Source of the DNA: a phage
Sequence record: PV991107.1
Strand: one strand, 5' to 3'
DNA length: 39,336 nucleotides
Part shown: in pieces, positions 30,772 to 34,896 of the stretch
Layout: each line of letters opens with the position of its first letter
How positions within the stretch are numbered: the stretch's first letter is position 1
Made by a program: the position numbers and the translations under genes
The notes under the pieces: model-generated
Told to the model about the DNA's origin: nothing
What the model saw: only the letters and a program-made list of their open reading frames with translations
Databases searched by the model: none

Positions 30772-32943
30772 ATGTTTGACCTTAAGAGTATCTGGGGTTC
30801 TGACATAGAGACCAACGGTCTCCTTGATACAGTCTCCCAGTTTCACTGTGGGGTCCTGATTAACGCCGAGTCGAATGAGACCCTTAAGTATGGGGTAGCT
30901 CCGATGGTCGGTATCGTCGGTGGCTTCAAAGAGTATGTACAGAAGGTGGAAGAGATTGCCGCATCACCTGATGGTATGCTGGTATTCCACAACGGTATCA
31001 ACTATGACGTCCCGGCTATTGACAAGCTAAAGCGTCTGTACTTTGGGAAACGCTTTAACTTCCCGAAACACAAGATGATTGATACCTTGGTGCTGGGCCG
31101 CTTGATGTATCCCAACATTAAGTTCTCAGACATGGGAGCAGTGAAAGCTGGTCGTCTGCCACCTAAGATGATGGGACGCCAGTCTCTTGAGGCTTGGGGC
31201 TATCGTCTCGGTGAGATGAAAGGTGAGTACAAACACGATTACGTTGCCAAGTGCAAGGCTGAAGGTATCGAATATAAGGCTGGGGACGAATGGTTGTTCC
31301 CGTCTCAGGAGATGCTGGACTATAACGTTCAAGACGTTGTGGTCACACTGGCGTTGTTCAAGAAGTTCCTGACTGACAAGTATTACTTCCAGTCTGAACA
31401 GTTTGCTTTCGACCAGATTTATGCGTTGCGTCTGGAACATGATGCTGCGTGGATCTGTGCGAAGATGGAGCGTAACGGCTATCCGATGAACACCGAGATG
31501 GTCGAAGGCTTATATCGTGAACTCACCGTCAAACGTGCAGAGTTGTTGGACAAGCTGCGTTCGACTTTCGGTAGCTGGTATGCACCAAAGGGAGGCAAGG
31601 AGTTCTTCAAGCACCCACGGACAGGCAAGGACCTTCCGAAGTATCCGCGAGTCGTGTATCCTAAGGTCGGGTCAGTATTCAAGAAGCCGAAGAACAAAGC
31701 TCAACGCTTAGGTCTGGAGCCTTGCGAGTTCGACTCACGAGACACGATGGAAGGAGCACCGTTCACGCCAATCACTTACGTTGAGTTTAATCCGGGAAGC
31801 GGAGACCACTTAGCGAAAGTCTTGATGGAGCGTGGTTGGGAGCCTGTGGACTTCACTGACACTGGGAAACCTGTAGTCGATGACGAGACGTTAGAACACG
31901 TTAAGCTACCAGACGCAGAGGCTCAGGCTTGCGTAGAGCTGGTCCGTGAGTATCTGGTAGTCCAGAAGCGCATCGGTCAGGCGGCTGAAGGTAAGAACGC
32001 ATGGTTGAAACTTGTAGGTCCAGACGGACGTATGCATGGTTCAATCAACCCATGCGGGGCAGTAACCGGACGTGCGACTCATAGTTCACCAAACATGGCT
32101 CAGGTCCCTGCTAACGGTGCTCCGTATGGTGAGATTTGCCGTGGTGCTTTCGGTGCAGCTTGGAACAAGACGGATGGTAAGCCAGACCCTTGGATTCAAG
32201 TGGGTGTGGATGCTTCAGGTCTTGAGCTTCGTTGTCTGGGGAACCGAGCAGCTCCGTTTGATGGTGGTGCCTATGCGAAGACTGTGGTCGAAGGTGACAT
32301 CCACTGGGCCAACGCAGTAAACGCTGGTTTAGCACCTAATGTCCCACGAGATAAGTTGAACCACGACCATGATGCTTTCCGTAACAACGCTAAGACGTTC
32401 ATCTATGCGTTCCTGTATGGTGCAGGGGCCGCTAAGATTGGACTAATAGTCGGCGGTGGCAAGAAGGAAGGTTCAGCTCTCATGAAGAAATTCATTGAGG
32501 GCACACCAGCCATCAAGGACCTCAGGGAAGCTGTGAGTAATACGTTAATCTCAGACTCTAAGTGGGTGGACGGAGAGAACATCGTTAAGTGGAAACGCCG
32601 TTGGTTGCGTGGACTTGATGGTCGCCGTATCCACATCCGGTCTCCACACTCAGCACTAAACGCATTACTTCAAGGCGACGGTGCGGTAGTCTGTAAGCAC
32701 TGGATTGTCGAGACTGAACGTATGCTTGAAGAGGCAGGGTATGTTCACGGCTGGGAAGGAGACTTTGCGTACATGGCATGGGTTCACGACGAATTGCAGA
32801 TTGCGTGCCGTACTCAGGAGATTGCCGAAGAAGTCGTCAAGATCGCTCAACTTGCTATGCGTAAGGTGGGTGAGTTCTATAACTTTAAATGTGTCCTTGA
32901 TACCGAAGGTAAGATTGGACCAACGTGGAAGGAGTGTCACTAA
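30772..32943 (+). CDS. DNA polymerase (T7 gene 5 homolog)
   Basis: ORF-track frame 30736-32943 trimmed to ATG after GGAGG; MFDLKSIWGSDIETNGL.., ..VFHNG..YDVPA.., ..LEAWGYRLGEMKGEYK.., ..KTFIY.FLYGAG.., ..YMAWVHDE.Q.. match T7 DNAP. Confidence 0.97.
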   Translation: MFDLKSIWGSDIETNGLLDTVSQFHCGVLINAESNETLKYGVAPMVGIVGGFKEYVQKVEEIAASPDGMLVFHNGINYDVPAIDKLKRLYFGKRFNFPKHKMIDTLVLGRLMYPNIKFSDMGAVKAGRLPPKMMGRQSLEAWGYRLGEMKGEYKHDYVAKCKAEGIEYKAGDEWLFPSQEMLDYNVQDVVVTLALFKKFLTDKYYFQSEQFAFDQIYALRLEHDAAWICAKMERNGYPMNTEMVEGLYRELTVKRAELLDKLRSTFGSWYAPKGGKEFFKHPRTGKDLPKYPRVVYPKVGSVFKKPKNKAQRLGLEPCEFDSRDTMEGAPFTPITYVEFNPGSGDHLAKVLMERGWEPVDFTDTGKPVVDDETLEHVKLPDAEAQACVELVREYLVVQKRIGQAAEGKNAWLKLVGPDGRMHGSINPCGAVTGRATHSSPNMAQVPANGAPYGEICRGAFGAAWNKTDGKPDPWIQVGVDASGLELRCLGNRAAPFDGGAYAKTVVEGDIHWANAVNAGLAPNVPRDKLNHDHDAFRNNAKTFIYAFLYGAGAAKIGLIVGGGKKEGSALMKKFIEGTPAIKDLREAVSNTLISDSKWVDGENIVKWKRRWLRGLDGRRIHIRSPHSALNALLQGDGAVVCKHWIVETERMLEEAGYVHGWEGDFAYMAWVHDELQIACRTQEIAEEVVKIAQLAMRKVGEFYNFKCVLDTEGKIGPTWKECH

Positions 32944-33101
32944 TGGCTAAAACTTATAGTGAGCAGGAGGTCAAAGACCTGATGCGGTCAGCTTGGTGGT
33001 GTGGACACGAGGAGTCTCGTTATAGTCCAAACCTCAGTGGACAGTGCAGTCGAGACATTCGTGAAATTCTGAAAGAACATAACGAAGAAGGAGAAGACTA
33101 A
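32943..33101 (+). CDS. Small hypothetical protein (52 aa), ATGA/TAATG-coupled
   Basis: MAKTYSEQEVKDLMRSAWWCGHEES..; hand-placed. Confidence 0.35.
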   Translation: MAKTYSEQEVKDLMRSAWWCGHEESRYSPNLSGQCSRDIREILKEHNEEGED

Positions 33102-33385
33102 TGGCTATTACTAAACGTATTCGTGTGAGTTTTGACCTGAAGATGGTTGTTAGCTCAAAGAGAGAAGAGACAGTGTGTCGCCAACTGGCTGAGATGACTA
33201 AAGCCTACGCTGATGGTGAGAAGCTGGATGGGCTTCAGATGGCTATGGTCAAAGCAGCAATAGAGTCAGGCCCTGAGTCTGCCATTGAAATTGTCACCAA
33301 GAAGATCATCAAGGAGGAGCTGGTAGACGCCTTTGGTGAGGGTCAGTCCGGTGTGTCCAACCTGCGATTCGAGGTCAAGCAATGA
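33101..33385 (+). CDS. Gene 5.5-like protein (94 aa)
   Basis: ORF track; position and size; N-terminus MAITKRIRVSFD. Confidence 0.5.
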   Translation: MAITKRIRVSFDLKMVVSSKREETVCRQLAEMTKAYADGEKLDGLQMAMVKAAIESGPESAIEIVTKKIIKEELVDAFGEGQSGVSNLRFEVKQ

Positions 33386-33591
33386 GTGAATACTTACGGG
33401 TCCTAGCGGCCCTTAAGTCCTGCCCGAAGACATTCCAGTCCAACTATGTGCGAAACAACGCTGCACTTGTGGCTGAGGCTGCGAGTCGTGGACATCTAAG
33501 CTGCCTGTCTATGGATGGGCGTAACAACGGTGCGTGGGAGATTACCGCTGCTGGCACCAAGTTCCTGAACCAACACGGAGGCTGTCTGTGA
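33382..33591 (+). CDS. Gene 5.7-like protein (69 aa)
   Basis: MSEYLRVLAALKSCPKTFQSNYVRNNAALVAEAASRGHLSCL...GAWEITAAGTKFL resembles T7 gp5.7 (69 aa) as recalled. Confidence 0.65.
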   Translation: MSEYLRVLAALKSCPKTFQSNYVRNNAALVAEAASRGHLSCLSMDGRNNGAWEITAAGTKFLNQHGGCL

Positions 33592-34037
33592 AGATACCTG
33601 AAAGTCTGAAAGAGCTTGTCCTTGAAATGGGTGAATTCGATAAGGAGCACCGCAAGTACGGTGAGTTCTACGCATCTTGGTCATTCACCCTGACTGAGAA
33701 GGACGTTGAGGCCTACGCCGAGTCTCCCGCTGAGGTTTATGAGTGGCGTCCGTTCATCGGACTGACCATCGTAGCTAGCGGTATGTGGGATGACAGATAC
33801 GGCTCAGAGGTAAACGACTGGGACGTGTACCGCCAAGTTGAGAAGGAGACCGAAATGTCTTCCAACTTCTGGAGCCTGATGTCCCGCCTCAACTCAGATG
33901 ACAACGACATGGCCCATGAGTTCGCCAGCAAATGGCTGAAGCCTGAGGTGACTCTGGAACGTATTGAGGAGCCTAAAGTTCCCTTGATGCCATATGCAGT
34001 CGCTATGGCTACAGGAGGTCTGGACGATGGGTGCTGA
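33588..34037 (+). CDS. Hypothetical acidic protein (about 149 aa, GTG start) where T7 has the 52-aa gp5.9
   Basis: ORF-track frame 33534-34037; GTG preceded by GGAGG; overlaps gene 6 start by about 44 nt. Confidence 0.45.
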   Translation: MKIPESLKELVLEMGEFDKEHRKYGEFYASWSFTLTEKDVEAYAESPAEVYEWRPFIGLTIVASGMWDDRYGSEVNDWDVYRQVEKETEMSSNFWSLMSRLNSDDNDMAHEFASKWLKPEVTLERIEEPKVPLMPYAVAMATGGLDDGC

Positions 34038-34896
34038 GAAGAAGATAGCTCTTGTTCTTGATGGCGATTACCTAGTATTCTCTTCTATGGCTGCTGCCGA
34101 GGACGAGACAGACTGGGGTGATGACATCTGGACCCTTATCTGCGACCATGCAAAGGCTCGTCGTATCCTTGAGAACACCATCGCTGAAATCGTTAAGAAG
34201 CGCAAGGCGTGGAAAGACGCTAAGATTGTGATGTGCTTTACTGACGATAATAACTGGCGTAAGGACGTACTTCCTACCTATAAGGCTAACCGTAAGGGTT
34301 CTCGCAAGCCTGTAGGTTACAAGAAGTTCGTAGCCGAAGTGATGGCTGACCCACGGTTCAACAGCTTCCTGCGTCCCACGCTTGAGGGTGATGACTGTAT
34401 GGGTATCATCGGGACCAGACCTCAGATTGTCGGATGTGACCATGCGGTTCTGGTGTCCTGTGATAAGGACTTCAAGACCATCCCGAACTGTGAGTTCTTC
34501 TGGTTAACCACTGGTGAAATCCTGAGTCATACGACTGCTGAGGCAGACTACTGGCACATGGAGCAGACCATCAAGGGAGATACTACAGATGGCTACGGTG
34601 GCATTCCTGGAATGGGTGAGGACACCACTCGTGTGTTCCTTGACGAGCCGTACTACTTCGTGCAGGAGAGCCGTGAGCTTAAGACTGGCAAGAACAAAGG
34701 CCAGATTAAGACTGAGTGGAAGAAGTATCCGAAGCGTGAAGGCATGACGCTGTGGGACTGCATGGTTACACTGGCTGCTAAGGCTGGCATGACCGAGGAG
34801 GAACTTCTGGTCCAAGCTCAGGTCGCTCGTATTTGTCGAGCATCTGACTATGACCCTAAGTCCAAGGAGGTCATCCTATGGACACCACCCATGTAA
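33994..34896 (+). CDS. 5'-3' exonuclease (T7 gene 6 homolog)
   Basis: 300 aa (T7 gp6 300 aa); ..LVLDGDYLVF..CDHAKAR.ILE..FTD..NWRK...YKANRK...KPVGY..SCDKDFKTIPNC.F.W.TTG.IL..T...WH...TIKGD.TDGY.GI.G.GE.. matches T7 gp6. Confidence 0.95.
   Translation: MQSLWLQEVWTMGAEKKIALVLDGDYLVFSSMAAAEDETDWGDDIWTLICDHAKARRILENTIAEIVKKRKAWKDAKIVMCFTDDNNWRKDVLPTYKANRKGSRKPVGYKKFVAEVMADPRFNSFLRPTLEGDDCMGIIGTRPQIVGCDHAVLVSCDKDFKTIPNCEFFWLTTGEILSHTTAEADYWHMEQTIKGDTTDGYGGIPGMGEDTTRVFLDEPYYFVQESRELKTGKNKGQIKTEWKKYPKREGMTLWDCMVTLAAKAGMTEEELLVQAQVARICRASDYDPKSKEVILWTPPM

Follow-up and report, generated by a model that had tools for sequence, protein, structure and literature searches.

An acidic gene between genes 5.7 and 6 of a K1F-like phage shares a predicted module with long gp5.9 proteins and is a candidate host-nuclease inhibitor

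RecBCD occupies a central position in bacterial immunity; to our knowledge only a handful of the phage proteins that inhibit it are understood (Gam, gp5.9 and Abc2). The T7 protein gp5.9 is a coiled-coil DNA mimic that places its C-terminal end on the RecB arm and its N-terminus on the RecB/RecC core, with ion pairs between D4 and RecB R561 and between D11 and RecB R761, and an N-terminal tag weakens its inhibition (PMC9836394). It has a second target, MukBEF, in which it blocks the DNA cleft of MukE (PMC7617805). The initial annotation of the DNA studied here had started from the premise that T7 encodes the 52-aa gp5.9 in the slot between gene 5.7 and the exonuclease gene. This was borne out by a sequence match to PDB 8b1r chain P, and in records of Teetrevirus and Berlinvirus the gp5.9 gene lies between 5.7 and 6.

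The window, i.e. the whole stretch of DNA that was analyzed (PV991107.1, 39,336 nt), is the complete, permuted genome of a K1F-like podovirus (Kayfunavirus, Studiervirinae). In this genome the slot is occupied by a 149-codon open reading frame (ORF), and the 1.9 kb around it are 95–97% identical to Escherichia phages pO2, SR04 and phiHAO1-1. The features of the slot are as follows:

33382..33591, plus strand: gene 5.7 homologue (69 aa), upstream border of the slot (phrog_1334, E 7e-39; annotations in relatives)
33577..33581, plus strand: Shine-Dalgarno sequence GGAGG of the 149-aa ORF, 6 nt 5' of its start, read from the sequence
33588..34037, plus strand: coding sequence of a 149-aa acidic accessory protein of the PHROG 4382 family (phrog_4382, E 3.1e-47; dN/dS 0.20)
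34027..34896, plus strand: gene 6 5'-3' exonuclease (289 aa), downstream border of the slot (PF02739, E 4.7e-9; phrog_107, E 1.8e-79)

The GTG start codon of the ORF (33588-33590) overlaps the TGA stop codon of gene 5.7 (33589-33591) as GTGA, and the frame ends with a TGA codon at 34035-34037. The ATG of gene 6 at 34027 has its own GGAGG (34014-34018) within the last codons of the ORF, and the two genes overlap by 11 nt. The product has a pI of 4.40 and a net charge of -16, with 31 aspartate and glutamate versus 15 lysine and arginine residues. The initial annotation had described an acidic frame of about 149 aa at 33588-34037, with a GTG start after GGAGG and an overlap with the start of gene 6, and each of these points holds. 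A mechanical ORF call placed the start earlier, at 33534, giving 167 aa. We fixed it at 33588 because five relatives have an ATG at precisely that position behind the same GGAGG; the context around the Shine-Dalgarno sequence, GGAGGCTGTCT, is present in all five and is otherwise identical. The GTG start is thus peculiar to the phage studied here, compared with ATG in the five relatives. The codon at 33885-33887 specifies Arg100, so that MSRLN is found here versus MSHLN, and the near-invariant histidine of a motif referred to below as SHLN is replaced. Either the GTG start or Arg100 could reduce the expression or activity of this copy.

The ORF is a genuine gene under purifying selection. The same 450-nt gene is annotated in RefSeq as a hypothetical protein of phage vB_EcoP_F, and tblastn placed the ORF at no less than 80% identity in about 55 phage records, with 92–96% protein identity to the closest homologues. 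Over six orthologues, the ORF had a Nei-Gojobori dN/dS of 0.20, whereas genes 5.7 and 6 were at 0.05 and gene 5.5 at 0.37. Within the ORF, the SHLN module was the most constrained part (0.10) and the C-terminal tail the fastest evolving (0.42). A frame that is annotated in relatives, recurs in about 55 records at this identity and has a dN/dS of 0.20 is more than a chance reading frame. Hence, the absence of the frame from relatives, which the initial annotation had named as a possible refutation, was not what we found. Our best reading is that the ORF is an optional middle (class II) gene of the K1F-like phage, translationally coupled to genes 5.7 and 6.

Two further stretches upstream of the slot were variable. 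Gene 5.5 (33101-33385) had a mean dN of 0.40 and dS of 1.09 among close relatives, versus a dS of 0.2–0.4 in its neighbors, and its match to the Pfam family Phage_T7_55 lay under the cut-off (18 bits versus 25); this divergence suggests that the allele may have been replaced by recombination. Between the DNA polymerase gene and gene 5.5 lies a 52-aa ORF (32943-33101, phrog_20928, function unknown), to which many relatives align only from about 90 nt inward. In other relatives an HNH endonuclease is encoded close by, within the DNA polymerase gene (K1F) or downstream of it (SP7), and 32943-33101 looks like another variable spot.

Residues 1–130 of the ORF protein match positions 6–129 of the 130 positions of PHROG 4382, an uncharacterized family, with an E-value of 3.1e-47, which is a full-length match, and all 26 aligned relatives match this family as well. 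Homologues were found in the 5.7/6 slot of Klebsiella Przondovirus (127 aa, 43% identity) and Aarhusvirus (128 aa). In FelixO1-like Mooglevirus myoviruses the homologue (130 aa, about 29% identity) is flanked by nrdD and nrdG, and in Grimontviridae it lies downstream of the DNA polymerase. Only 19 clusters, all of small acidic proteins, emerged when 1.8 billion representative proteins were searched exhaustively with the profile, and a word-indexed protein search returned only relatives with at least 80% identity. All 63 family proteins that were retrieved are acidic, with pI values of 4.1–5.0 and charges from -5.5 (in a 43-aa deletion derivative) to -20. Outside its own family, the ORF matched nothing in Pfam, NCBIfam or PADLOC, the PADLOC defense-system profiles giving noise only (13.7 and 11.6 bits). 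A Pfam scan of the 26 aligned relatives yielded no match, and neither phmmer nor the family profile matched the ORF to PDB sequences. The searches of Pfam, NCBIfam and PADLOC revealed no catalytic family, catalytic motif or nucleotide-binding signature in the ORF or its family, and no structural similarity to solved DNA-mimic or anti-defense folds (Gam, Ocr, Ugi, ArdA, Acr, sponge proteins) was found. Our literature search found no paper characterizing the family. PHROG 4382 is phage-restricted and known so far as 'hypothetical' only.

In some phages the gene is present in in-frame deleted or truncated versions (P0053, P0029, P0028, P0035 and P0027). A 43-aa deletion form joins residues 1–20 to the tail, and other shortened forms have 84, 91 and 142 aa. 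Such forms fit a dispensable gene that is at times lost piecemeal. Several family members carry labels that we regard as misassigned, namely 'tail tube protein' (phage HP1, P0040), 'putative DNA methylase' (Henu12) and 'Rho-GAP domain-containing' (K42PH8, P0035). Macro-domain phosphatases (ADP-ribose-phosphate phosphatase-like) are encoded near the family member in Proteus phage Privateer (L007:3207-3683) and elsewhere in the genome of Moogle (gp116, L028); it is possible that these are counter-defense genes in the same middle-gene regions.

An AlphaFold2 model built from 32 sequences was of moderate quality (pLDDT 78, pTM 0.62). Its elements are, in order, a helix, a beta-hairpin, two helices, a second beta-hairpin, a helix-loop-helix (89–116), a strand (120–125) and a disordered tail (129–149), which gives the following layout:

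33588..33845, plus strand: core alpha/beta domain, residues 1–86 (AlphaFold2, pLDDT about 77–94 per 10-residue block)
33852..33938, plus strand: helix-loop-helix 'SHLN' module, residues 89–117, consensus F..L.SHLN.E.N.MA.EF (hhalign, phrog_6163 matches, dN/dS 0.10)
33939..33968, plus strand: final beta-strand (VTLERI), residues 118–127 (AlphaFold2 strand 120–125), predicted to rejoin the core-domain sheet
33969..34034, plus strand: disordered tail, residues 128–149 (pLDDT < 50 for 129–149; dN/dS 0.42)

In the core domain, the hairpin motifs EHRKYxEFY and GxWxDxxGxE are conserved, and G15, R22, F27, G65, W67 and G72 are invariant. The domain also exists as a stand-alone protein (the metagenomic P0056 and P0059, and Erwinia phage Y2 gp59). 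The SHLN module of the ORF, residues 89–117, reads FWSLMSRLNSDDNDMAHEF. Relatives that lack the module (P0052, P0055-57, P0059, P0061 and Y2 gp59) bridge its site with a short linker and then resume with a similar last strand, and we infer from this that the module was probably inserted into the core domain, between its strands 4 and 5. The tail is encoded by a conserved junction that bears the ribosome-binding site and start of gene 6. The unrelated protein that occupies the slot in SP7 has the same C-terminal end, EEPK.SLMPATVAMATGGLDDGF, and that of ST20 has a diverged version. The 22-residue tail is accordingly separate from the ORF's own domain and is encoded by the junction.

The initial annotation had offered two options for the ORF, a diverged or extended gp5.9-type inhibitor and an unrelated accessory protein. 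BLASTP detected no similarity between the ORF and T7 gp5.9, and tblastn of T7 gp5.9 against the whole 39,336-nt genome gave no match. The gp5.9 profile PF25708 did not match the ORF (E ≤ 1) or any of 26 family members (E ≤ 0.1), with positive controls passing the cut-off of 24.5 bits (T7 27.8 bits, T3-type 68.9 bits, ZH4 45.8 bits), and no other gp5.9-like ORF was present in this genome or in that of phage Moogle. The fold predicted by AlphaFold2 is a five-stranded mixed alpha/beta fold, unlike gp5.9, which is an all-helical parallel coiled-coil dimer with N-terminal strands as a brace. A diverged or stretched T7 gp5.9 is ruled out by the missing BLASTP and PF25708 matches, the nothing-elsewhere result for the genome and the different predicted fold, which contradicts the first option in this form.

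Kinship emerged instead with a longer form of gp5.9. The slot of phage ZH4 holds a 78-aa protein that matches phrog_6163 (E 4e-23) and passes PF25708 (E 5.5e-12, 45.8 bits versus the cut-off of 24.5), which makes it a gp5.9-family protein of the long type. The GVDNWxGY motif of T3-type gp5.9 is present in its C-terminal half, and the N-terminal sequence KKFDELMSHLNGEENSMAEEF carries the motif that ORF residues 92–112 form, SNFWSLMSRLNSDDNDMAHEF; the Kayfunavirus consensus of the SHLN motif is ...LMSHLNSEDNDMAHEF. When the ORF family was compared with the gp5.9-family alignment by hhalign, the match had a probability of 95.1% (E 3.2e-8) over residues 89–115 and of 96.1% (E 3.5e-9) over residues 89–117, the latter being aligned to residues 5–33 of the ZH4 protein (27–29 columns). 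By this measure, residues 89–117 belong with the head segment of the gp5.9 family, and 9 of the 26 ORF-family members independently matched phrog_6163 (best E 8e-7). At the level of sequence profiles, residues 89–117 are thus homologous to the N-terminal module of long gp5.9-family proteins. Hence, the homology and structure search suggested by the initial annotation matched neither T7 gp5.9 nor a known fold but did uncover a gp5.9-family module. The second option is supported as to an accessory protein, the slot being empty in K1F, and wrong about an unrelated one, residues 89–117 being shared with long gp5.9.

Pfam coordinates, MAFFT and hmmsearch independently align ORF residues L101–F112 to M1–V12 of T7 gp5.9, with D104 on D4 and E111 on D11. 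This equivalence with D4 and D11 is fragile, because the aligned T7 gp5.9 and the long type share no more than 12% identity. Since the homology spans 27–29 residues, most of them N-terminal to the Pfam gp5.9 domain, the module could also be a generic folding or dimerization element. It occurs alone in the 42-aa protein ECBP5_0057 (phage ECBP5), and Pseudomonas phage PPSC2 has it fused to another acidic C-terminus. In Chaseviridae and Kolesnikvirus it forms the N-terminus of gp5.9-like proteins. Proteins that consist of or begin with SHLN are labeled 'putative tail spike protein' in ECBP5 (L022:1798-1926), PPSC2 (L023:1792-2067) and Cronobacter phage GW1. In Erwinia phage Y2, the long gp5.9-like gp58 overlaps by 8 nt with gp59, the stand-alone core-domain homologue (family HMM positions 9–89, 25 bits), an arrangement that resembles a gene-fusion link. 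This argument is limited to one lineage, because a core domain adjoining a gp5.9-like gene was absent from the four other contexts in which it was sought (L024, L025, Moogle and Privateer).

We surveyed the slot (33592-34026 in this genome) across Kayfunavirus with the conserved flanks as probe. The classes derive from sampled records, among which at least five states were found:

Studied ORF: about 55 Kayfunavirus records
Empty, with gene 5.7 abutting gene 6: K1F and many Kayfunaviruses
Long gp5.9, a 78-aa acidic protein: ZH4, CLBP1
110-aa acidic protein, phrog_18166: Salmonella phage ST29
92–93-aa phrog_2251 proteins: SP7, ST20, IJM

At least four cargoes besides the ORF occupy this slot in other phages. 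The same alternation was observed in Przondovirus, where KMI1 and about 60 others have a PHROG 4382 protein and P510 and 066042 have a long gp5.9. The 5.7/6 junction is a recombinational swap site that holds T7- or T3-type gp5.9, long gp5.9, other small proteins, or nothing. Our literature search found neither this behavior of the slot nor the partial gp5.9 kinship of the ORF family. From the empty, deleted and truncated forms and the alternation it follows that the gene is optional and exchangeable with true gp5.9-family genes; the K1F genome has no relative of PHROG 4382 or of the gp5.9 family anywhere. In one case (L024) the slot holds a core-domain homologue without the SHLN module, and since core-only homologues occupy the slot, the core domain must itself be active in some way. 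Three tblastn censuses all gave one place per record (176/176, 85/85 and 82/82), and a second motif-bearing gene was found in none of the genomes examined.

Two of the other cargoes deserve mention. The ST29-type cargo was checked as a remote relative of the core domain and gave no HMM match; the ST29 protein (L009:507-839) showed a weak match to phrog_2294, labeled 'ribonucleotide reductase' (E 9e-9). That two slot cargoes (the ST29 type, and the ORF via Mooglevirus) have relatives in nrd clusters may be coincidence, or an artefact of PHROG labels taken from gene neighborhoods. In Enterobacter phage 03_vB_Eclo_IJM (L011), the exonuclease is annotated piecewise and the slot cargo reads through the frame break; the record probably contains an error of sequencing or assembly, or a frameshift.

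That the exchange takes place in the same slot in two genera, and that each genome has one motif gene, indicates that the ORF and gp5.9-family genes are functionally equivalent. We therefore put forward, as a tentative first choice, that the ORF protein may be a non-catalytic inhibitor that docks by the shared module on a gp5.9-type host target, with RecBCD as the first candidate. It would act stoichiometrically, without catalysis, by binding a host DNA-end or duplex-binding machine and blocking its DNA site, the prime target candidate being RecBCD and the second MukBEF. The SHLN module would contact the target in the way that the N-terminus of gp5.9 does, and the bulk and negative charge that the coiled coil gives to gp5.9 would here come from the acidic globular domain. 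The target and mode of inhibition are what we infer; the reality of the gene, its domain make-up, the homology of its module, the polymorphism of the slot and the dispensability of the gene are what the analysis itself shows. Counted against RecBCD as the target are that the ORF protein lacks the coiled coil by which gp5.9 mimics DNA and binds the RecB arm, that nothing links the activity of the core domain to RecBCD, and that the studied copy has a GTG start and an arginine for the near-invariant histidine of the motif.

A bolder extension of this proposal is possible but doubtful. The SHLN helix-loop-helix could be a portable 'warhead' for the RecBCD core, mounted on swappable acidic scaffolds, which would make the ORF protein a structurally new class of RecBCD/MukBEF inhibitor. 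The scaffolds may be the gp5.9 coiled coil, the PHROG 4382 globular domain, the other C-termini of Pseudomonas phages, or none, as in the 42-aa miniprotein. The 5.7/6 junction would then perhaps be a hot-swap site for equivalent counter-defense genes that diversify against guards of RecBCD, e.g. retron Ec48.

Rather unlikely, yet the most serious competitor, is that the ORF protein modulates or inhibits a host or defense target other than RecBCD, with SHLN as a portable structural element and specificity residing in the core domain. The occurrence of SHLN alone (ECBP5_0057, 42 aa) and on a different acidic C-terminus (PPSC2) is consistent with this, as is the existence of core-only homologues in the same slot, and the conserved basic/aromatic patch (H21 R22 K23 Y24, W67 D69) in an acidic protein resembles a specific binding site. 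T7 gp5.9 itself has MukBEF as a second target (PMC7617805). The exchange with true gp5.9 genes in two genera, at one motif gene per genome, argues the other way, and no similarity to known anti-defense structures was found.

It is improbable that the protein is an accessory of phage DNA or nucleotide metabolism, e.g. a partner or regulator of the gene 6 exonuclease, of ligase or of ribonucleotide reductase. K1F and many Kayfunaviruses keep the same exonuclease with an empty slot, in-frame deleted and truncated forms exist (P0053, P0029, P0035), and no nucleotide-binding or catalytic signature was found. Family members do always lie in DNA-metabolism clusters. In T7-like phages they overlap the gene for the 5'-3' exonuclease, in Mooglevirus they are flanked by nrdD and nrdG, in Privateer the member is downstream of the DNA polymerase, and on a 67-kb contig it is next to a DNA ligase gene, but the neighboring enzyme varies by lineage.

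Still less probable is that the studied copy is decaying or poorly expressed, so that it would at present do nothing in this phage although the family may be functional. This would account for the GTG where five relatives have ATG and for R100 in place of the near-invariant histidine, and deletion derivatives exist in other phages. Against it, the frame is intact and full-length, the Shine-Dalgarno sequence and coupling overlaps are kept, the protein is 92–96% identical to its closest homologues, and GTG starts work in bacteria. A simply lengthened, diverged orthologue of T7 gp5.9 is highly improbable despite the same slot, the acidity and the common N-terminal-type module, given that no member matches PF25708 or shows BLASTP similarity, that the predicted fold is alpha/beta with the module near the C-terminus rather than the N-terminus, and that the core domain has independent homologues of its own.

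If RecBCD or MukBEF inhibition by the ORF protein is true, unrelated scaffolds can exchange a short conserved module, and many K1F- and KP32-like therapeutic candidates (against E. coli, Salmonella Typhi and Klebsiella) carry an unrecognized counter-defense gene. The 5.7/6 junction would be a predictable site for finding new counter-defense genes, about 180 'hypothetical proteins' in databases would gain a function, and the labels 'tail tube protein', 'tail spike protein' and 'DNA methylase' would be corrected. If the protein is not a RecBCD inhibitor, the family is still a compact, widespread and uncharacterized fold, and its clear conserved patch would justify determining a structure. The module shared with the gp5.9-type proteins of the same slot makes the ORF protein a candidate, open to testing, for a new kind of host-nuclease inhibitor.

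Compared with the described systems, the ORF protein resembles T7 gp5.9 (PF25708, PDB 8B1R / 9GMD) in its 5.7/6 slot, small size and strong acidity, and its residues 101–112 can be placed in register with residues 1–12. Unlike T7 gp5.9, it has 149 aa rather than 52, is predicted to be an alpha/beta globule rather than a parallel coiled-coil dimer, and has neither a PF25708 match nor the DNA-mimic helix that binds the RecB arm. With long gp5.9 (phrog_6163: ZH4 78 aa, Y2 gp58, DE15, Pistou_113) it shares the SHLN module, in which up to 14 of 16 residues are identical to the Kayfunavirus consensus, the acidity, and the slot in Kayfunavirus and Przondovirus. In long gp5.9, however, the module is N-terminal and runs into the gp5.9 helix and GGVDNWxGY motif, whereas in the ORF protein it sits within an unrelated domain, close to the C-terminus of that domain, and there is no gp5.9 core. 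The PHROG 4382 and stand-alone proteins (Przondovirus 127 aa, Mooglevirus 130 aa, Y2 gp59, P0056, P0059) are true homologues of the core and are likewise acidic and uncharacterized, but some lack SHLN, the Mooglevirus copies lie between nrdD and nrdG instead of beside an exonuclease gene, and within PHROG 4382 only the Kayfunavirus copies have the 22-aa junction tail. Lambda Gam, Ocr and Ugi are, like the ORF product, small, acidic, non-enzymatic phage proteins, and they exemplify the type of mechanism that we propose for it.
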